From an uncultured Pelagibacteraceae bacterium (GTDB lineage Bacteria; Pseudomonadota; Alphaproteobacteria; Pelagibacterales; Pelagibacteraceae): a DNA stretch of 64,000 nt. The position numbers were made by a program, and so were the translations under genes. The notes beneath the pieces were generated by a model. That model worked only from the letters and a program-made list of their open reading frames with translations. It had not been told where the DNA came from and ran no database searches. The DNA is taken from contig CACNLV010000002.1 in assembly GCA_902621345.1 (NCBI GenBank), positions 32,320 through 96,319 of the forward strand, given 5' to 3'. Below, piece by piece: positions 37,581-46,353 of the stretch; positions within the stretch are counted from its first letter, which is position 1; every line of letters starts with the position of its first letter.

Positions 37581-38631
37581 CGTTCTCTGTTAGTACAGCC
37601 TTTTCAACTTGCTCGGGATCTTTAATATTTTCTAAAGTTCTAGTAATTGATCTTGCATCTTTTCCAAAACTATCAACAACTGTCATGGCCTCTTCAAGTT
37701 TTTTTCTTAATTTATAAATATTATCAAAATGACTAGAAAATCTCGTACTTATAGTTTTTAGATGATCATAAATCTCTGTTGCGTGTTTTGAAATTTTGAG
37801 AGATTGAAATCCCATGTGTAAAGACTGTAAATAAGCTGATAAAGTATTAGGGCCACAAATTACTATTTTATATTTTTTCATTAATTCTTGAGTTAATAAC
37901 TCTTTAGTGCTTGGGTCTTGGTACTCAGTTAACTCTTTATAAAGACTTTCAGTAGGAGCATATACTATTGCAAAATTTGACGTTTTTGGAGGAACGATAT
38001 ATTTCTCCATGACACTTTTTGCTTTGGCCTTAAATGCGCTTGCTAATTTTGTTCTAGCATCTGCAACTGCTTTTTTATTATCTGCCTCATGCGCATCTGT
38101 AATTGCCTTAAATTTTTCTATTGGAAAATGAGAGTCTACCGGAACCAAAACATCTCCTTGAAGCTTGATTGCAAATTCCACATTTTCACTGGTATCTTCT
38201 TTCATTTTGACATTGGTCATATATTGAGACGCAGGTAATAAATCTTTAATTAAAGCATCCAAAGAATATTCAGCTAAAGTTCCATACTTTTTAACCCCTG
38301 CTAAAATTTTAGTAATCCCCTCTTGGCTATGATTTAATAATTTAACTTGTTCGTTAAAATTCCCAACCTTCTCATCAACTTTAGTAAGTGCCTCGGTCAT
38401 GTCCTTTGTAACCCCAGTTGATAAAGAGTTAAATGATGTAGACATCGAACTTAGAGATGTATTGATTGTAGAGTTTAAACTATCTTTTAATCTAATAATT
38501 TCCGCATTTAAATTTGCTATTTCATTAGTCTCATCAGCTCCGTTCTCTTTCTTGGACTTTATATTTAAATACAAAATAGCCAAGATTGCTCCAAACATTA
38601 AAATCAAAATTATTAATAAAATTGTGTCCAT
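37540..38631 (-). CDS. rmuC: DNA recombination protein RmuC
   Basis: N-terminal TM helix, a coiled coil, and the RmuC domain (DSHFPIEKF, VYAPTESLY, VICGPNTL). Confidence 0.85.
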   Translation of the reverse strand: MDTILLIILILMFGAILAILYLNIKSKKENGADETNEIANLNAEIIRLKDSLNSTINTSLSSMSTSFNSLSTGVTKDMTEALTKVDEKVGNFNEQVKLLNHSQEGITKILAGVKKYGTLAEYSLDALIKDLLPASQYMTNVKMKEDTSENVEFAIKLQGDVLVPVDSHFPIEKFKAITDAHEADNKKAVADARTKLASAFKAKAKSVMEKYIVPPKTSNFAIVYAPTESLYKELTEYQDPSTKELLTQELMKKYKIVICGPNTLSAYLQSLHMGFQSLKISKHATEIYDHLKTISTRFSSHFDNIYKLRKKLEEAMTVVDSFGKDARSITRTLENIKDPEQVEKAVLTENVEKFVERNKQLKK

Positions 38632-38778
38632 GATTCGTAACTTGTATTATAAGGGATTTTTATGGAATTATATCTTATTTTGAAAATTATTTTTGGAATA
38701 GGGTTTCTAATAGCTGCTTATGCAATAATAAGAAATTTAGATATCATCAAAATTATTCTCATATACTTTAAAGATAAA

Positions 38779-39468
38779 TTACTTAGAAAGTAATTTAACA
38801 AAGTTTTTTAAACCTTTTTTTTTACTATTTTTTTTTGAAGTAAAAATACAAGCTTGAGATTTTAATATTTTTCCATCCTTCAAAACACGCAAATTATTTG
38901 CCTTTAGTGTTTCACCTGTTGAAGTTATATCGGTAATTAATTCAGCCGAACCAGTAAAAGGGTATGCCTCTGTTGCTCCTAAACTATCAACTAATTTAAA
39001 TTGGGTAACACCTTTAGAAAATAAAAAATCTCTAGTTAAATTTGGGTACTTAGTTGCAACTCTCAATCTTTTTTTCTTTTTATCTCTGAATTCAAAGGCG
39101 ATTTCCTCTAAGTCAGCTATGGTTTGCACATCAATCCAAGGATCAGGGATTGCAACAACTAAATCTGCATTTCCAAAATTAAGTTTTGACATTATATTTA
39201 TTTTGTTCTGAGTATTAACAGCACTTTCTTTGAATAAATCAAAACCAGAAAATCCAATATCTAAAGAGCCGTCTCCTAATCTTTCAAGAATTTCTCTTGC
39301 ATGTAAATATAAAATCTTGATATTTAATTTATTTTTAATTGATCCAATCAAATCTCTTTCTCCTCGTTCAGAAATAAGCTTTAACTTTTTTTTATAAAAA
39401 ATTTTTAAAACATCTTTTTTTAATCTTCCCTTGCTAGGTATTCCTATGTTTATAAAATTATTCATCAC
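38779..39468 (-). CDS. hisG: ATP phosphoribosyltransferase, short form
   Basis: IGIPSKGRL N-terminus and DLVVAIPDPWID-type motifs. At 229 aa it lacks the C-terminal regulatory domain. Adjacent to hisZ. Confidence 0.92.
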   Translation of the reverse strand: MMNNFINIGIPSKGRLKKDVLKIFYKKKLKLISERGERDLIGSIKNKLNIKILYLHAREILERLGDGSLDIGFSGFDLFKESAVNTQNKINIMSKLNFGNADLVVAIPDPWIDVQTIADLEEIAFEFRDKKKKRLRVATKYPNLTRDFLFSKGVTQFKLVDSLGATEAYPFTGSAELITDITSTGETLKANNLRVLKDGKILKSQACIFTSKKNSKKKGLKNFVKLLSK

Positions 39469-40520
39469 TAAAAATTTAGATTAAGCGCAGCTCCAACTGC
39501 TGGTATTTGTTTTTTTGAACCAAGATCAGAAATTAGTTTGTCATAACGGCCACCATTACAACAATTAGCAATCTTTGACTTTGATTTAATATCGATTTTA
39601 AAAACCATTCCTGTATAATATTCCAGTTGCCGACCAAAGGCACTGGAGAAAACTACATTTAATTTGGATATTTTATTTTTTGAGATTGGGAAATATTTCT
39701 GATCGACGACAAGATTTATTCTGTTTTTCTTGAAAAATTTATTCAACTGACTCGCAGCTTTATTAATCGGACATTTAATTTTCAAAAATTCTTTAATAAT
39801 CTTTGAAACATTTTTTCCTCTGCTTGCTCTCCTTGGGTCCTTAATTTTTTTATCAAATCTTTCTAAAATTTCTTTAATAGTTCTACCTGCAACAATAGAT
39901 ATTTGGTCATCCTTTAACATTTTTAAATATCGTTTTTTATCAACTTCAACAATAGTTGGATCTACATCGGAATTAGTCTCTAATCTTTTTAATAAATCAC
40001 TGAAATAATCTTCTCTCCAAAAATGTCTTGTAAGTCTTAATTTCCATCTTTTTGGTATATCTAATTTAGATATTAGAAGATTAAAAATCTCCACATTACC
40101 AATAGTGAGAGTGCCTGTAGAATATTTTAGATCTTTGAGTGATTTAAGAGACGTATTTATTATTTCTTTGTCATCATTTTTTTCATCTTTTGATCCTATA
40201 ATCTCAAAGCCAACTTGATTTCTTATTATAGAGTCTTTTTTATTTTGAGATTTTCTGTAAGCCTGTCCACTATAAAATATTTTTTCTTTCCCCTTTAAAT
40301 TTTTTTCTAAATATCTTAGACAAGAGACGATTGTAAGATCCGGTCTTAGACATAATTCATTACCTGACTGATCTGTAAATGAAAAAATAAATTTCCTAAA
40401 ACTCTCACCTGATCGCTGCACTATATGATTTGTTTCAATAACAGAAGGTAATTCAATATATTTAAATCCTTTAGATTTTACCGATTTAAGAATTTTGTCA
40501 GATAAATTTTTTGATCTCAT
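39468..40520 (-). CDS. hisZ: ATP phosphoribosyltransferase regulatory subunit
   Basis: Paralogous to the HisRS catalytic core (LRPDLT, GGRYD) but with no anticodon-binding domain. Lies between hisS and hisG. Confidence 0.85.
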   Translation of the reverse strand: MRSKNLSDKILKSVKSKGFKYIELPSVIETNHIVQRSGESFRKFIFSFTDQSGNELCLRPDLTIVSCLRYLEKNLKGKEKIFYSGQAYRKSQNKKDSIIRNQVGFEIIGSKDEKNDDKEIINTSLKSLKDLKYSTGTLTIGNVEIFNLLISKLDIPKRWKLRLTRHFWREDYFSDLLKRLETNSDVDPTIVEVDKKRYLKMLKDDQISIVAGRTIKEILERFDKKIKDPRRASRGKNVSKIIKEFLKIKCPINKAASQLNKFFKKNRINLVVDQKYFPISKNKISKLNVVFSSAFGRQLEYYTGMVFKIDIKSKSKIANCCNGGRYDKLISDLGSKKQIPAVGAALNLNF

Positions 40521-41895
40521 TAATTAAATTTTCTTTTGGAAACGTTTTTTGGTTATTTTCACCTTTAATACCAAGTAAGTTTTTTAATGTTACTTTATTT
40601 TCCTTAAACTCATTTTCTCCACAAATTACTGCAACTGGGCACCCTCTTTTATTTGCATAAGTCAGTTGCTTGCCAAGATTTTTTTTACTATCTAAAAATA
40701 TTTCTGAATTAATGTTATTTTTTCTCAAATTATCTAAAATCTCATAATAATTTGGTAAATATTTTTCATCCATCACACATACAATTATCGGCTTTTGTTC
40801 ATCGATTTCTATCTGATCTAATTGCGTCATAGCAAATAGCAATCTATCAACACCAATACTTATACCAGTTCCAGGAATGTCTACACCTTTAAATCTAGAA
40901 ATTAATTTATCGTATTGTCCGCCTGAGCAAATGCTTCCAATATCAACTTCTTTACCTTTGTTATTTTTTACTTTAAAATTTAAATTTGTTTCAACACAAA
41001 AACCATCGTAATAATCAAGACCTCTAACAATTGTAAAATTGGTTTTAACTTGATCAAAATAAGATCCGAAAACTAAAATTTCAAAAAATTCCTCTAGTTC
41101 TTTAATTCCCTCTTGTGTAAGAGAGTTTTTAAAATTTTGTTTTAATTCCTTTAAATCCCTAATCTTTAAAAAATCTAAAATTTTTGCAGCTTGATCATTG
41201 CTTAGATCAGCTCCTTTTGTAATAGCTCCACTTTTATCTTTTCTCTCTTTTTTTAATAATTCCTCTACTCCCTTAAATCCAAAGTCAGGTTTATCTAATT
41301 TATCGATCGCTCTCATTACTTTAATCTTTTTATTTTCTGGGATTTTAAGGTCCTCAATTAAACCTTGAACAATTTTTCTATTACTAACATTAATAGTGAA
41401 CTGGTTTTTGTTTAAACCAACTTCAATCAATGTGCTTGCAATAAGATTGCATAATTCAGCATTTGCCTGTGCTGAATTGACGTTACCCACAATATCACAA
41501 TCTGCCTGTGTAAATTCTCTAAAACGAGCATTGCCAGACTTTTCATTTCTAAATACATTTTGAATAGCGTATCTTTTATATATTGAGGGAAGTTCTTGAT
41601 TGTTTTGTGCAACAAATCTTGCTAGTGGACTTGAGAGATCATATCTAAGAGTAATATTTTTTTCACCATCATTAAAAGAGAAAACATCAGACATAGGATT
41701 ACTATCATCCTCTGCAAGAAAGGATCCAATATTTTCTGCAATTTCAAATGACGGGGTCTCTAATGGATCAAATCCATATTTTATAAAATTCTTCTCAATA
41801 ACTTTTAAAAGTTTTTTTTTGAGAAATAATTTTTTATTCCATCTATCTTCAAATCCTGAGGGTAAACCAGGAATTAATTTATTATCTTTATTCAT
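40498..41895 (-). CDS. hisS: Histidine--tRNA ligase
   Basis: Class II motifs (LRYDLSSPLARF, FRNEKSGNARFREFTQ, GGQYD, GISIGVDR) plus an anticodon-binding domain. The start is set at the Met at 41895, because the longer ORF (to 41943) runs into the tRNA-His gene. Confidence 0.93.
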   Translation of the reverse strand: MNKDNKLIPGLPSGFEDRWNKKLFLKKKLLKVIEKNFIKYGFDPLETPSFEIAENIGSFLAEDDSNPMSDVFSFNDGEKNITLRYDLSSPLARFVAQNNQELPSIYKRYAIQNVFRNEKSGNARFREFTQADCDIVGNVNSAQANAELCNLIASTLIEVGLNKNQFTINVSNRKIVQGLIEDLKIPENKKIKVMRAIDKLDKPDFGFKGVEELLKKERKDKSGAITKGADLSNDQAAKILDFLKIRDLKELKQNFKNSLTQEGIKELEEFFEILVFGSYFDQVKTNFTIVRGLDYYDGFCVETNLNFKVKNNKGKEVDIGSICSGGQYDKLISRFKGVDIPGTGISIGVDRLLFAMTQLDQIEIDEQKPIIVCVMDEKYLPNYYEILDNLRKNNINSEIFLDSKKNLGKQLTYANKRGCPVAVICGENEFKENKVTLKNLLGIKGENNQKTFPKENLINEIKKFI

Positions 41896-41899
41896 TTTT

Positions 41900-41974
41900 T
41901 GGTACCCGGGCTGAGAGTCGAACTCAAACTTAAAGTTCCACAAACTTCCGTGCTAACCATTACACCACCCGGGC
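41900..41974 (-). tRNA. tRNA-His (anticodon GUG), CCA encoded, no encoded G-1
   Basis: The minus-strand cloverleaf is GCCCGGG TG GTGT AATGGTTA GCAC G GAAGT TTGTGGA ACTTT AAGT TTGAG TTCGACT CTCAG CCCGGGT A CCA. The anticodon loop is TT-GTG-GA. Confidence 0.93.
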
Positions 41975-42029
41975 TTATTCTCTTTATTTTTATCTTATTT
42001 TATGTGGATTTAAAATTATAATTAAATGT

Positions 42030-42053
42030 TAAAATGCTAGCTTTAGCCAGCAT
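42030..42053 (-). terminator. Candidate attenuator/terminator hairpin
   Basis: Minus strand ATGCTGGC-TAAA-GCTAGCAT: an 8-bp stem with one G-U pair and a 4-nt loop, followed by TTT. It overlaps the last His codon and the stop codon of the 33-codon ORF. Confidence 0.35.
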
Positions 42054-42144
42054 GGATATGAGTATGCACAACTATCTCGTTTACTTTAAGATCTTTTCTT
42101 AAAGTACTGGTGTTGATCGATTTTATTAGCTCATATTTTTTCAT
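42043..42144 (-). CDS. Candidate 33-aa leader peptide with an H-T-H-I-H cluster (below the ORF-track cutoff)
   Basis: The hand translation of the minus strand is MKKYELIKSINTSTLRKDLKVNEIVVHTHIHAG-stop. It lies between the csp terminator and tRNA-His-hisS-hisZ-hisG. There is no clear SD. Confidence 0.3.
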   Translation of the reverse strand: MKKYELIKSINTSTLRKDLKVNEIVVHTHIHAG

Positions 42145-42192
42145 AAGGTGTCTTTTAGACAAAAAATTTTATTATGCAACCTTTAAAAGAAA

Positions 42193-42230
42193 AAAGACGT
42201 AAATTTCTCATTTAGAGAAAAAACGTCCTT
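42193..42230 (-). terminator. Intrinsic terminator of the cold-shock gene
   Basis: Minus strand AAGGACGT-TT-TTTCTC-TAAAT-GAGAAA-TTT-ACGTCTTT, followed by TTTCTTTT. It starts about 20 nt after the csp stop. Confidence 0.65.
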
Positions 42231-42252
42231 TATCAAAATCTTAATTTTAGGA

Positions 42253-42465
42253 TTAATCTAATTTCTTAAGATTTACTGCTGAAGGGCCTTTTGGTCCATC
42301 CTCTAGTGTAAATTCTATTTTATCACCTTCATTCAAAAATCGCATTCCAGCTGCTTTTACTGCGGATGCATGAACGAAAGCATCTTTTTCTTTGTCATCT
42401 CTTTCGATAAAACCATAACCTTTTTTACCGTTAAACCACTTTACTTTACCTTGTATTGTACTCAT
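42253..42465 (-). CDS. cspA: Cold-shock protein (CspA family)
   Basis: [15 protein letters not shown] (RNP1) and AFVHAS (RNP2). Length is 70 aa. Confidence 0.93.
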
Positions 42466-42545
42466 CTTATTTCTTAGTCCTTTTGTTAATTATTATAGAT
42501 AGAAGTTAATTTGTTTTTGGGTAATTTCAAGATGAAATCTTATGG

Positions 42546-42620
42546 TGGTGGCTGAGGAAGGATTCGCACCTCCGACACAAGCCTTTTCAGGGCTCTGCTC
42601 TACTCCTGAGCTACTCAGCC
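42546..42620 (-). tRNA. tRNA-Phe (anticodon GAA), CCA encoded
   Basis: The minus-strand cloverleaf is GGCTGAG TA GCTC AGGAGTA GAGC A GAGCC CTGAAAA GGCTT GTGTC GGAGG TGCGAAT CCTTC CTCAGCC A CCA. Confidence 0.93.
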
Positions 42621-42626
42621 TTAAAA

Positions 42627-42842
42627 TTATCCTCTAAAGATTATTCTACCTTTAGTGAGATCATAAGGAGTCATTTCAACTGTTACATTATCACCTTGCA
42701 AGACTCTAATTCTATTTTTCCTTAATTTTCCAGCAGTATGAGCTGTAACAGTATGACCATTTTCTAATTGCACTCTAAACATTGCATTAGGTAATAAATC
42801 TGTAACTTTACCTTTAAATTCAAGTAGATCTTGTTTTGACAA
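42627..42842 (-). CDS. infA: Translation initiation factor IF-1
   Basis: 71 aa, S1-like OB fold ([49 protein letters not shown]). TTG start. Confidence 0.95.
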
Positions 42843-42848
42843 ATTTAT

Positions 42849-44135
42849 TTACTCCTTATTTTTAATTCTTTTTATGATGGATTGAGCATGCCCTTTCAAT
42901 CCCTCATAATTTGCAAGAGTTATAACTGATGGCCCAAGACTTTCAATACCCTTTTTTGATAAGTTTATATAAGAAATTCTTTTGTAAAATTCATTTACAC
43001 TTATTCCACTTGAATATTTTGCTGAACCATTGGTTGGTAGTATATGATTTGAACCAACATTATAATCTGTCATTGCCATAACAGCATATTTTCCTAGACA
43101 TATTGATCCGGAATTTTTTACTCTGGAAACCAATGATTTGTAATTTTTAACATTGAGCTCTAAATGTTCGGGTGCAATTTTGTTTACAATATTAATTATT
43201 TTGTTATCTTCAGATACATACATTAAAATTCCATTATTTTTTAAACTTTTTCTTGCGATTGATTCTCTCGGAATACTTTTTAATTGTTTTGCAATTTCTA
43301 TCTTAACTTTACTTATTAAATTTTTATCTTTTGAAATTAAAATACATTGCGCTAGAGGATCATGTTCTGCTTGACCAATTAGATCACTAGCCACCCATTC
43401 AGGATTGGAATGTTTATCACAAACAATTGTTATTTCTGATGGCCCTGCGGTCATTCCTTCTATTCCAACATCTCCAAAGACCTCTTTCTTTGCAGCTGCA
43501 ACATATGAATTTCCTGGTCCAACAATTTTATCAACCTTTTTGATTTTTTTTGTGCCATAAGAGACTGCTGCTATTGCTGATGGACCCCCAATTGAATAAA
43601 TCTCTTTTATCTTGCATTTTTTTGCTGCATATAACACAGCAGGATTTTGATTACCTTTATAACCAGGGTTAATCATAACAACTCGCTTAACACCCGCAAC
43701 TGTAGCTGGAATCGCGTTCATCAAAACACTTGAGGGATAGGAGGCAGTTGAGCCAGGTACATAGATAGCAACTGATTCTATTGGTAAATACTTATAGTTA
43801 AGTTTGTTTTTAAATCTGTCTGTGTAAGAAATATTTTTGAATTTTTGTAGAGAATGAAATTTATAAATTCGATTATAAGCTATATCTATTGCTTTCCTAA
43901 CTTTAGGATCTAAAGACTTGATTAATTTATTAATTTGTTTTGAACTTGGGATAATTTTATTATTTTTATTAAATTTTTTTTCGTATTTAATTAGAGCCTT
44001 ATCGCCATTACTCTTTACATCTTTAATAATTTTAGTCACAGATACTTTTTCAGATATTATTTTTTTTCTTCTCTTATGAAGTAAGTTATCAAGAACTTTA
44101 TCAAAATTTTTACTTTTATTAATAAGTACTTTCAT
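42849..44135 (-). CDS. hisD: Histidinol dehydrogenase
   Basis: GQAEHDPLAQ, APEHLEL and SNHILPT motifs. Confidence 0.95.
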   Translation of the reverse strand: MKVLINKSKNFDKVLDNLLHKRRKKIISEKVSVTKIIKDVKSNGDKALIKYEKKFNKNNKIIPSSKQINKLIKSLDPKVRKAIDIAYNRIYKFHSLQKFKNISYTDRFKNKLNYKYLPIESVAIYVPGSTASYPSSVLMNAIPATVAGVKRVVMINPGYKGNQNPAVLYAAKKCKIKEIYSIGGPSAIAAVSYGTKKIKKVDKIVGPGNSYVAAAKKEVFGDVGIEGMTAGPSEITIVCDKHSNPEWVASDLIGQAEHDPLAQCILISKDKNLISKVKIEIAKQLKSIPRESIARKSLKNNGILMYVSEDNKIINIVNKIAPEHLELNVKNYKSLVSRVKNSGSICLGKYAVMAMTDYNVGSNHILPTNGSAKYSSGISVNEFYKRISYINLSKKGIESLGPSVITLANYEGLKGHAQSIIKRIKNKE

Positions 44136-44137
44136 AA

Positions 44138-44530
44138 TTATTTAATTTCATTTTGATCCTCTAATCTTGCTTCAATTGTTTCAGTAGTCAAAACAATGTG
44201 AGAATTATTATTAAAAATAAGATTTATTTCATAATCATCCTTATTTTTCAAATAATCAATTCCAATCAATTCTAAAACTAAATCTTTCTTTGATTGATTG
44301 ATATTTTTTGATTTCACTTTATCAACAAAATCAAACCTACAAATGCTGTTGATTTTCCTTTGATCTTGTCCTGTTTCAATAAGACTTCTCTCTATTGACA
44401 GTAAAAAAACCTTATTAGATGAAAGGTACTTTATATCGGCTATTTTTACTTTTGCCCCAGAGCTACAAGCAGAAATCATTTGTAGACCTTCCTGATCATT
44501 TGCAATTATTTTTGCTAAAAATTTATTCAC
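44138..44530 (-). CDS. DUF2948 family protein
   Basis: 130 aa. N-terminal ...NDQEGLQMISACSSGAKVKIADIKYL...FLLSIER resembles DUF2948. It occupies the conserved alphaproteobacterial slot between murA and hisD. Confidence 0.65.
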   Translation of the reverse strand: MNKFLAKIIANDQEGLQMISACSSGAKVKIADIKYLSSNKVFLLSIERSLIETGQDQRKINSICRFDFVDKVKSKNINQSKKDLVLELIGIDYLKNKDDYEINLIFNNNSHIVLTTETIEARLEDQNEIK

Positions 44531-45789
44531 TTTCTAAGTCTTCTTATTTTAACGCCAATTTTTTTTAATTTTCTCTCTAAATTTTCATATCCTCTATCTA
44601 GATGATAAATTCTATTAATAGAGGATTTACCATTTGAGATCATTGCTGCTAAAACAAGTGCAACAGACGCTCTTAAATCACTAGACATTAATTCAGCGCC
44701 AATAAATGTTGTATTTCCTTTAATTAACGCTTTATTCTTTTTAATTTGGATATTTGCGCCAAGTCTTTGAAGCTCTCCAACGTGAAGAAATCTGTTTTCA
44801 AAAATATTTTCAGTAATTGTACTTGTACCATCTGCTATACACATTAAGACCATTAATTGAGATTGCATGTCAGTTGCTACACCTGGCCATTCTCTTGTTT
44901 TAATATTTTTTATAGGTTTTATCTTTTTAGGTCCAATTATCTTAATCTTATTGTTATCAATTTTAATTTTTGCCCCAACTTTTTTTAATAGCTCAAGCTC
45001 TGCTCTAATTATACTAAAGTTAAAATCTTTAATTTCTAGACTCCCTTTGGTGAGGGTGGCGGCTACACAAAAAGTACCTGCTTCTATTCTATCAGCCATA
45101 ACTGTATACTCAGTCTGGTTTAAAGAATTAGTTCCAAGAATCTTACATGTTCTTCCAAACCATTGGATTTTTGCACCTGCTGAGTTTAGAAAATTTGTAA
45201 GATCTTTTATCTCGGGCTCTATAGCGCAATTCTTCAAAACTGTTTTACCTTTTGCTAAGCATGCTGCAATAATTGAATTTTCTGTGGCACCAACGCTTAT
45301 TTTAGGAAACTTTATGATACTACCTTTAAGTCTTCCCTTGGTCTTGGCGAAAATGTATCCATCTTTAATTTTATAATTCATGCCAAGTTTTTTTAATGCT
45401 GAAAGATGATAATTCACAGGTCTAGCACCTATTAAACATCCTCCAGGCAAAGAAGTTTTAGATTTATGAAATTTTGAAATCAATGGACCTAAGACTAAAA
45501 TTGATCCTCTCATCGTTTTCACAAGTGAATAACTTGCAAAAGTTTTCATCTTTTTTTTGTTAATAATTTTTACAGTTTTTTTGTCTTTAGATAAAATTAT
45601 TCGCGATCCAAGAGATTTTAATAAATTAAGCATAGTCTTTATATCTCTTACTCGCGGTAAATTTTTAATAATTACCGGCTTATCAAATAGTAGAGTAGCT
45701 GCAAGAATTGGTAAAGATGCATTTTTTGATCCTGAAATTGAGACTTTACCCTTAACTCTACAAGGACCACTTATCAGAAATTTATCCAT
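44527..45789 (-). CDS. murA: UDP-N-acetylglucosamine 1-carboxyvinyltransferase
   Basis: GSKNASLPILAA, the catalytic-Cys loop LPGGCLIGARPVN, and 420 aa. Confidence 0.95.
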   Translation of the reverse strand: MDKFLISGPCRVKGKVSISGSKNASLPILAATLLFDKPVIIKNLPRVRDIKTMLNLLKSLGSRIILSKDKKTVKIINKKKMKTFASYSLVKTMRGSILVLGPLISKFHKSKTSLPGGCLIGARPVNYHLSALKKLGMNYKIKDGYIFAKTKGRLKGSIIKFPKISVGATENSIIAACLAKGKTVLKNCAIEPEIKDLTNFLNSAGAKIQWFGRTCKILGTNSLNQTEYTVMADRIEAGTFCVAATLTKGSLEIKDFNFSIIRAELELLKKVGAKIKIDNNKIKIIGPKKIKPIKNIKTREWPGVATDMQSQLMVLMCIADGTSTITENIFENRFLHVGELQRLGANIQIKKNKALIKGNTTFIGAELMSSDLRASVALVLAAMISNGKSSINRIYHLDRGYENLERKLKKIGVKIRRLRK

Positions 45790-45792
45790 AAA

Positions 45793-46353
45793 TCACTTTT
45801 TTATTTTGGCAACCTGTATAGTAGTTTGTCCCTGATATTTACCATTTTTTGATTTATAAGTTGTTTCTGGTTGTGTATCAGATTTAAAAAATAAAAATTG
45901 AGCTATTCCTTCATTTGAATAAATTTTTGCAGGGTTAGGGGTTGTATTGCTTAATTCAATAACGATATTACCCTCAAACTCATTTTCAATTGGTGTAACA
46001 TTACATATAATCCCGGTACGGGCGTATGTGCTTTTACCAACACAAATACAAAGCACATCTTTTGGTATTCTGAAATACTCAACAGTTTTCGCCAAAACAA
46101 ATGAATTTGGCGGAATAATACAATAAGGTCCCTTTCTCTCTATAAAGTTTTCATCAGAAAAGTTTTTTGGATCAACTAAAGAGCTATTTACATTAGTGAA
46201 TATCCTATATTCATCAGATATTCTTACGTCATACCCCATGCTACTTAATCCATAAGATATTTTTCCTTCAGATACTTGATGATCTAAAAATGGCTCGATC
46301 ATATTATGTTCTTCACACATTCTTTTAATCCAAGTATCTGGCTGTATCGACAT
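45793..46353 (-). CDS. dcd: dCTP deaminase
   Basis: 186 aa. [14 protein letters not shown] and IELSNTT motifs of the Dcd/dUTPase fold. Confidence 0.9.

Follow-up and report, generated by a model that had tools for sequence, protein, structure and literature searches.

A candidate histidine-sensing leader peptide upstream of the tRNA-His-hisS-hisZ-hisG unit in SAR11 bacteria

The element described here lies in a 64,000-nucleotide (nt) stretch of DNA from an uncultured Pelagibacteraceae bacterium (contig CACNLV010000002.1; this whole stretch is hereafter called the window), the minus strand of which carries, in this order, hisD, infA, tRNA-Phe, csp, a 278-nt spacer, tRNA-His, hisS, hisZ and hisG. 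Within the spacer, a short open reading frame (sORF) with a cluster of histidine codons near its end follows a promoter-like box and runs into a hairpin, and a conserved AT-rich block separates this hairpin from the tRNA-His gene (Table 1). A preliminary description of the spacer, made from this one sequence, had read the arrangement as a possible histidine-sensing attenuator. Its positions for the open reading frame (ORF), the His codons, the hairpin, the TATAAT hexamer and the promoter-like hexamers all proved correct when rechecked against the sequence, and the identities of the downstream genes were confirmed with ARAGORN and Pfam. The intrinsic terminator that follows csp is the end of the upstream transcription unit. 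Downstream, the reading frames of hisS and hisZ overlap by 23 nt and those of hisZ and hisG by 1 nt, and the order hisS-hisZ-hisG is likewise found in relatives.

Table 1 Features of the csp/tRNA-His spacer and of the genes downstream of it (positions in the window).
Feature	Position	Strand	Details
csp intrinsic terminator	stem 42231-42193, to 42183 with U tract	-	spacer RNA fold; element alone -17.5 kcal/mol
Promoter-like box P1	TTGCAT 42179-42174; TAAAAG 42157-42152	-	hexamers separated by 16 nt
Leader sORF	42144-42043 (TAA 42045-42043)	-	33 codons + stop; MKKYELIKSINTSTLRKDLKVNEIVVHTHIHAG
Hairpin A (inside sORF)	42106-42082; 8-bp core 42104-42097 with 42091-42084	-	UACUUUAAGA-AAAGA-UCUUAAAGUA
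His codons 27, 29, 31 (CAT)	42066-64, 42060-58, 42054-52	-	
Hairpin B	42053-42034	-	DNA ATGCTGGC-TAAA-GCTAGCAT; RNA AUGCUGGC-UAAA-GCUAGCAU
U-rich tail	42033-42024	-	UUUAACAUUU; 6 U in 10 nt
AT block	42020-41988	-	(T)ATAATTTTAAATCCACATAAAATAAGATAAAA; includes TATAAT 42020-42015
tRNA-His (GUG)	41974-41900	-	ARAGORN; Rfam tRNA 59.5 bits; without G-1, with G1.U72 and A73
hisS	41895-40498	-	Pfam tRNA-synt_His + HGTP_anticodon
hisZ	40520-39468	-	Pfam tRNA-synt_His alone
hisG	39468-38779	-	Pfam HisG

When only the window sequence is considered, the finding is suggestive, not proven. An ATG-initiated ORF of at least 33 codons arose in 7.6% of Markov shuffles of the spacer, so that the length of the ORF in a single sequence is not significant, which bears out the caution of the preliminary description that such an ORF can appear by chance in AT-rich DNA. 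ORFs of this length with at least three His among the last seven codons occurred in 5 × 10−5 of the shuffles; given the His frequency of 1.48% in the long ORFs of the window, the probability of three or more His in seven codons is 1 × 10−4. The preliminary description called this spacer the largest non-coding gap in the window; a crude, unannotated count of the spaces between ORFs of at least 90 amino acids showed others of 220-270 nt.

Related loci were collected by several routes. Scanning one genome per species with the window HisS yielded 80 Pelagibacteraceae loci (HisS identity 85-97%). A profile of the leader peptide, built from 36 variants, retrieved 96 protein clusters, either unnamed or annotated as 'hypothetical'; the contigs of three divergent clusters, the HisS proteins of which are 57%, 54% and 48% identical to that of the window, all carry csp, the sORF, tRNA-His, hisS, hisZ and hisG. 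The 48%-identity HisS was then used for a metagenome scan, which added 22 more loci with further leader types; a separate HisS protein search for distant lineages returned only proteins with at least 86% identity and one longer protein at 80%. Across the resulting range of HisS identity, from 97% to 48%, the complete module (promoter-like box, ATG, His sORF and hairpin) was detected in 98 of the 110 loci; no sampled lineage of the Pelagibacterales lacked it, and it always lay directly upstream of tRNA-His-hisS. The 12 loci without it are mostly contigs cut upstream or unrelated HisS homologues (~30% identity). In four loci (L013, L023, L058 and L070), another gene takes the place of csp, and the box, sORF, hairpin, AT block and tRNA-His remain together; thus, the module travels with hisS and not with csp. 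The preliminary description had named conservation of the ORF and of its frame, synonymous as opposed to non-synonymous change at the His codons, and compensatory change in the hairpin as the properties to look for in relatives, and all of these were found.

The start of the sORF is tied closely to the promoter-like box. The hexamers that had been noticed upstream of the window ATG recur as TTGNNN-16-TANNNN followed by a His sORF in the 98 loci, and the distance from the second hexamer to the ATG is 7 nt in 86 of these, 6 nt in three, 8 nt in two and 10 nt in seven. No Shine-Dalgarno (SD) sequence was found before the sORF ATG, in agreement with the preliminary description. An ATG located 7 nt after the second hexamer indicates, on the basis of promoter spacing, that the sORF mRNA is probably leaderless.

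Several evolutionary signatures, taken together, indicate that the sORF is translated. Its ATG is invariant; of 81 close sequences, 79 have a matching ORF that runs up to the hairpin, and two have a variant form. Among 75 unique 33-codon versions, there is not a single in-frame stop, compared with averages of 2.6 and 4.5 per sequence for the remaining frames, whereas the column base frequencies predict 0.84 stops per sequence in the sORF frame (probability of no stop, 0.39 per sequence). Insertions and deletions inside the ORF come only in multiples of three, whereas those in the flanks are mostly of 1-2 nt. The length of the sORF varies from 18 to 38 codons across loci, and in codons 2-12 the diversity is nearly the same at the first, second and third positions (0.37, 0.38 and 0.42), with a ratio of non-synonymous to synonymous substitution rates (dN/dS) of 0.72. 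Thus, the N-terminal sequence is almost free and yet the frame is kept open, a pattern expected of a regulatory leader peptide rather than of a working protein. These comparative data rule out a chance ORF, despite its unremarkable length (P = 0.076).

The His codons behave differently from the rest of the frame. Diversity at positions 1, 2 and 3 is 0, 0.03 and 0.46 in codon 27, 0.05, 0.05 and 0.45 in codon 29, and 0, 0 and 0.32 in codon 31, so that variation is all but confined to third positions, and dN/dS over codons 26-31 is 0.17, compared with 1.04 when those bases are read in the +1 frame. Counted within the eight codons that end at the last His, 42 of 54 distinct leaders have three His, four have four, six have two, and two were scored with one; the last His is invariant, and one of the first two is occasionally lost. 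In the distant lineages, the terminal His cluster is the only part that the peptides share (THKAHIHSC, RHHFHW, STHRICFHSL, HRHHTHAG and HSHHFHAGAASR), and leaders such as MINNNIINIKTHKAHIHSC, MIKNVNKIFVNLKRHHFHW, MIINITYRKTSRSTHRICFHSL, MIILNNMFNSLHRHHTHAGCMLAI and …RGTNRGVHSHHFHAGAASR have no other likeness to the window peptide. The alignments indicate that these codons are under purifying selection as His codons.

A further stretch of the sORF is conserved in another manner. Codons 21-26 (GGAACTAATAGAGGTGT in the common leader type; alignment columns 150-170, corresponding to window positions 42084-42064) are near-identical, third positions included, and this identity spans the leaders of L081, L082, L085 and L092, the HisS proteins of which are only 48-57% identical and in which codons 2-12 are saturated. 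At 8-11 nt before the His29 codon, GGAACTAATAGAGGTGT includes GAGGTG, which resembles an SD sequence; the window haplotype, GTAAACGAGATAGTTGT, is without GAGGTG.

Hairpin B, the sole helix predicted by RNAalifold from 79 sequences, consists in the window of 8 base pairs, one of them G.U (-10.7 kcal/mol); its 5′ arm takes its first bases from the last His codon, and the stop codon falls in the loop. The stems co-vary: along with GCUGGC/GCUAGC, we found GCAAGC/GCUUGC and GCUGGC/GCUGGC (with two G.U pairs) as well as AUAGCC/GGCUAU, AUUGCC/GGCAAU, AUAGCUG/CAGCUAU and GGUAGC/GCUAUC, that is, at least five co-varying types. Such compensatory rewriting of the stem with retention of G.U pairs points to an RNA helix and not to a protein-binding DNA palindrome. 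The peptide residues after the last His (AG, AS, SC, SL, CL, W, GS…) track the stem sequence. The contact between the His codon and the hairpin, which the preliminary description had noted in the window, is general: in 51 of the 54 distinct leaders, the stem starts at +1 to +3 from the first base of the last His codon, whereas the stop falls anywhere from +3 to +26 from the first paired base, mostly in the loop and otherwise past the 3′ arm. That the stem position is fixed while the stop moves implies that selection holds the contact between the His codon and the hairpin, as an occlusion sensor would need.

These data also bear on the possibility that the spacer is a non-coding structured RNA, or a DNA operator in which the palindrome GCTGGC-N4-GCTAGC occupies the −35 position of a tRNA promoter, and that the ORF is incidental. 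The conservation of both hairpin B and the upstream hairpin A, the constancy of codons 21-26 at all three positions across distant lineages and the better folding of the spacer compared with shuffled sequences (z = −4.5, a figure that includes the csp terminator) would all fit an RNA element of this kind, but the coding signatures (a single stop-free frame, indels in multiples of three, third-position variation at the His codons) are strong. The half-sites of the palindrome change together (GCAAGC/GCTTGC, ATAGCC/GGCTAT), and stems held by G.U pairs (GCUGGC/GCUGGC) matter for RNA but not for DNA, which makes an operator unlikely. Searches against Rfam reported only tRNAs, both in window positions 38000-46000 at E values up to 10 and in ten relatives at the gathering score, without a match to the His_leader (RF00514) or T-box models in either set. 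We regard a non-coding element with an incidental ORF as very improbable.

Selection for translation would equally be expected of a free-standing micro-protein gene, encoding a basic peptide with a C-terminal H-x-H-x-H that might, for example, bind metal; such a gene would be transcribed from its own P1 and ended by hairpin B as terminator, the tRNA-His unit would be transcribed from a promoter in the AT block, and the linkage between the two would be synteny. A hairpin that overlaps the stop codon does resemble an ordinary compact terminator, a TATAAT is present in the very conserved block past it, the C-terminal half of the peptide (…RGTNRGVH.H.FHAG) is well conserved within several lineages, and gene callers list the sORF as a hypothetical protein in 96 clusters. 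However, the near-neutral N-terminal third and the variable length are not what such a gene would predict, and neither is the restriction of cross-lineage similarity to the His cluster: the residues after the last His follow the stem, so that the RNA is conserved and not the peptide, and it is the last His codon, not the stop, that holds a fixed place relative to the hairpin. In addition, the sORF stays with tRNA-His and hisS when the upstream neighbour differs, the candidate second promoter lacks a −35 hexamer and is not scored as promoter-like, and no Pfam or NCBIfam match was obtained for four peptide variants. A micro-protein gene is, on this evidence, an unlikely explanation.

Termination at hairpin B is plausible, although the sequences that would support it are uneven across lineages. 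In L105, L094 and L093, which represent three distant lineages, hairpin and tail are scored as terminator-like (one site found vs. 0.1-0.3 expected), the L105 hairpin being GCUGGC-UAUC-GCUGGC followed by AAUUUUUUAU, and the tails of other lineages are likewise richer than that of the window, e.g. AAUUUUUUAU and UUAUUUAUAA. Accordingly, the weakness of the U tract to which the preliminary description drew attention applies to the window and to the commonest Ia type but not to these three loci. Upstream of the His codons, hairpin A has 92.6% of cells paired, and its pair 132-148 occurs as U-A (45 sequences) or as C-G (33); it is lineage-specific, being missing from the 18-codon leaders of L094 and L097. 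By way of speculation, hairpin A may pause RNA polymerase until the ribosome catches up, in which case its role would be that of synchronising the two. A long-range helix (helix C) between AAUGAG at nt 9-15 and CUCAUU at His29 was considered as well and was not adopted, with 68% pairing compared with 64% in shuffles; it would not compete with hairpin B.

Between hairpin B and tRNA-His lies the AT block. When 19 lineage representatives were aligned, no other part of the spacer was conserved as well as this block (consensus ATT..TA..ATAATTTTAAA(T)CCAC..AAAATAA(T/G)ATAAAA); it has no second copy in the 64-kb window. The preliminary description had suggested that the TATAAT within it could be an independent promoter of tRNA-His. 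The hexamer does belong to a strongly conserved block, but it has no −35 partner, and promoter scans of the window, L105, L094 and L093 made no sigma-70 call there; in the same window, tRNA-Thr has a canonical TTGAAA-N18-TATAAT. The block may serve as a zone of pausing or termination, as a second tRNA-His promoter without a −35 hexamer, as a protein-binding site or as something else. In L082, L099 and L102, a 35-nt insertion is found between the AT block and the tRNA.

Considering the evidence as a whole, the spacer probably encodes a translated leader peptide that senses the supply of His-tRNA(His) and thereby controls tRNA-His-hisS-hisZ-hisG. The interpretation offered in the preliminary description is supported in that the sORF bears signs of translation, its His codons are under selection, the hairpin behaves as an RNA helix and the module is linked to the his unit; the His-dependent read-through is what we infer from these. 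Transcription would start at P1, placing the sORF AUG at the 5′ end or within a few bases of it, and a ribosome would translate the sORF, the N-terminal sequence of the peptide being unimportant. The 3′ edge of a ribosome lies ~12-13 nt beyond its A site, and a ribosome held up at the last His codon, or at the one before it, for want of His-tRNA(His) would cover the 5′ arm of hairpin B. With His-tRNA plentiful, the ribosome would reach the stop and leave, hairpin B would fold before the U/A-rich stretch, and transcription would stop ahead of the tRNA. With His-tRNA scarce, the stalled ribosome would hold the hairpin open, and RNA polymerase would proceed into tRNA-His and the genes for histidyl-tRNA synthetase (HisRS) and HisZG. 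No separate antiterminator helix would be required. What the sensor would monitor is the end product itself, the charged tRNA-His available at the ribosome, and it would set the tRNA, the synthetase and the synthesis of the amino acid accordingly.

The gene order constrains the level at which such control could act. RNase P excises tRNAs from transcripts, and therefore hisS, hisZ and hisG are within reach of a leader upstream of tRNA-His only as long as transcription is in progress; with the tRNA removed from between the leader and hisS, any regulation has to proceed via transcription elongation or termination. That transcription starts at P1, that it terminates at hairpin B and that the response depends on histidine are inferences, as is the direction of that response, which is drawn from physiology and not from the sequence.

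A number of observations weigh against this interpretation and have to be set beside it. With respect to termination, hairpin B of the window was not called terminator-like, the best 8-nt window of its tail having 4 T with a threshold of 5, and the tails of the commonest Ia type (GAAUAAUCAU), L081 and L085 are poor, with 2-3 U in 10 nt. Neither an antiterminator nor any alternative pairing was detected by RNAalifold in the 79 sequences, the preliminary description having seen no convincing one, and minimum free energy folds of 13 diverse leaders had no common alternative to hairpin B. With respect to the sensing codons, single His codons are lost in L008, L020, L022, L024, L026, L029 and L073. 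The retention of codons 21-26 at all three positions points to an additional constraint at the RNA level. The AT block is more conserved than the sORF, and an independent promoter there could make the leader dispensable. Finally, the geometry itself presents two difficulties: a terminating ribosome would also cover the hairpin, so that, under the model, RNA polymerase must pause downstream until the ribosome leaves; and a ribosome stalled at the first His codon, 12 nt before the last, would leave the hairpin free and produce the opposite response.

The same geometry is the starting point for another explanation, namely, a gate coupled to translation without specificity for histidine, or even working in reverse, whereby a closely following ribosome opens hairpin B and a delayed or absent one leads to termination, the operon thus being tuned to translational capacity. 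The stop lies in or just past the hairpin, so a terminating ribosome blocks it too; the first His codon is too distant for a ribosome stalled there to cover the stem; and no antiterminator that would invert the logic was found. However, such a gate leaves unexplained the purifying selection on the His codons and their abutment on the hairpin in every lineage, as well as the confinement of the module to a unit for His tRNA, synthetase and biosynthesis, and repression of hisZG upon His starvation would be maladaptive. We consider a gate of this kind improbable and retain the His-sensing leader as the preferred reading. Its most specific form, in which a leaderless His sORF with its last His codon fused to a terminator gates a tRNA, a synthetase and the first biosynthesis enzyme by occlusion, without an antiterminator, is put forward tentatively, as a possibility that falls somewhat short of an even chance; as a leader-peptide attenuator, such an element would have no described predecessor in SAR11 or in any alphaproteobacterial hisS unit.

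Several other features of the region were observed in the course of the analysis. The phylogenies of leader and HisS conflict: L078 and L079, with HisS 85% identical, have a radically different 24-codon leader and a different csp, and L081, with HisS only 57% identical, nonetheless has a leader near the Ia consensus. This conflict suggests recombination in the region among SAR11 lineages. In addition, the tRNA-His gene found between the leader and hisS differs among SAR11 lineages, with at least five unrelated sequences in that place (the window; L016, positions 2923-2993; and L078, L081, L082, L085/L086 and L088-L105); this looks like a fixed locus with repeated replacement of the tRNA-His gene. 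All tRNA-His alleles inspected have G1.U72 and A73 and no encoded G-1; this type without G-1 is known from alphaproteobacteria, including Pelagibacter (PMC4284800). The commonest Ia allele (T-loop AGCGUAA) was missed by ARAGORN, and that of L089 and L094 was not reported by Rfam at the gathering score.

In the window, the hisS ATG lies 4 nt past the CCA end of the tRNA and has no SD sequence, which implies that hisS is translated from a near-leaderless processed mRNA or beside a folded tRNA. In the distant lineages (L081, L085 and L089-L105), a hairpin ACGUC-UUGGAG-GACGU with a GGAGGA SD sequence is present before hisS. On the upstream side, tRNA-Phe (42546-42627, minus strand) begins 6 nt past the infA stop, and the stretch from hisD to hisG is one tightly packed same-strand array with two tRNAs embedded among the protein genes.

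SAR11 is the most abundant heterotroph of the ocean and has very few transcription factors, its known gene control consisting mostly of riboswitches. If the proposed mechanism holds, a streamlined cell would regulate a tRNA, a synthetase and a biosynthetic pathway with ~130 nt and no protein regulator, a tRNA gene would be controlled by the decoding of its own codons, and the read-through ratio in metatranscriptomes could report in situ histidine or nitrogen limitation of SAR11. We know of no leader-peptide attenuator described for SAR11, and a literature search returned no report of one, or of a leader for an alphaproteobacterial tRNA-His/hisS unit, in agreement with the preliminary description, which named none for a tRNA-His/hisS/hisZG unit. 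In the one systematic survey of Pelagibacter for structured RNAs, intergenic regions with tRNAs in them were left out (PMC2704228), which explains why the element was missed earlier.

Among the known systems, the closest in concept is hisL (RF00514) of Enterobacteria and other gamma-proteobacteria, where, as proposed for the SAR11 element, an ORF with His codons precedes histidine genes, the ribosome serves as the sensor and a hairpin is the proposed stop signal. However, the SAR11 element matches RF00514 neither in sequence nor in structure. The run of 7 His codons in hisL contrasts with 2-4 in SAR11, alternating as H-x-H-x-H or arranged as HHFH; the alternative helices 1:2, 2:3 and 3:4 were not found in the SAR11 element, the hairpin of which begins within the last His codon and has the stop either inside it or immediately after it. 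The SAR11 unit, moreover, starts with a tRNA-His gene and hisS and is not a whole his operon, and its mRNA is probably leaderless. A leader peptide in front of an aminoacyl-tRNA synthetase operon is itself not without parallel: in E. coli, the pheM leader peptide, with cognate codons, attenuates the pheST operon. The pheM-pheST case shares the cognate-codon leader peptide with SAR11 but employs a classical terminator and antiterminator, has no tRNA gene between leader and synthetase, and concerns another amino acid in a different phylum class.

A leaderless sORF in an attenuator also has a counterpart, in that mycobacteria reportedly possess leaderless poly-Cys sORF attenuators. The likeness consists in a leaderless sORF with codons for the amino acid of the downstream operon and in ribosome stalling as the signal; the phylum and the amino acid are different, the leaderless start in SAR11 is deduced from promoter spacing only, and tRNA excision in the SAR11 unit forces transcription termination as the output. 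In Firmicutes, the usual control of hisS is a T-box leader. Within that phylum, the Bacillus cereus group has predicted His leader peptides upstream of hisZ and of a hisS paralogue, and such predictions extend to Actinobacteria (PMC2965389, PMC9413887, PMC4833913). The leaders of the Bacillus cereus group resemble the SAR11 element in having a His-codon sORF before genes of the hisZ/hisS families, and both are known from comparative genomics alone; unlike it, they come from Firmicutes, carry runs of 3-5 His codons along with predicted helices for a terminator and an antiterminator, include no tRNA gene and share no sequence similarity with it. Some alphaproteobacteria use yet another solution, the HisR repressor (PMC9413887). 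Compared with all these systems, the SAR11 element, as far as sequence comparison can tell, would work like a leader-peptide attenuator, but without the antiterminator that defines the classical family; if so, it would represent a minimal attenuator design in which the hairpin is fused to the sensing codon.

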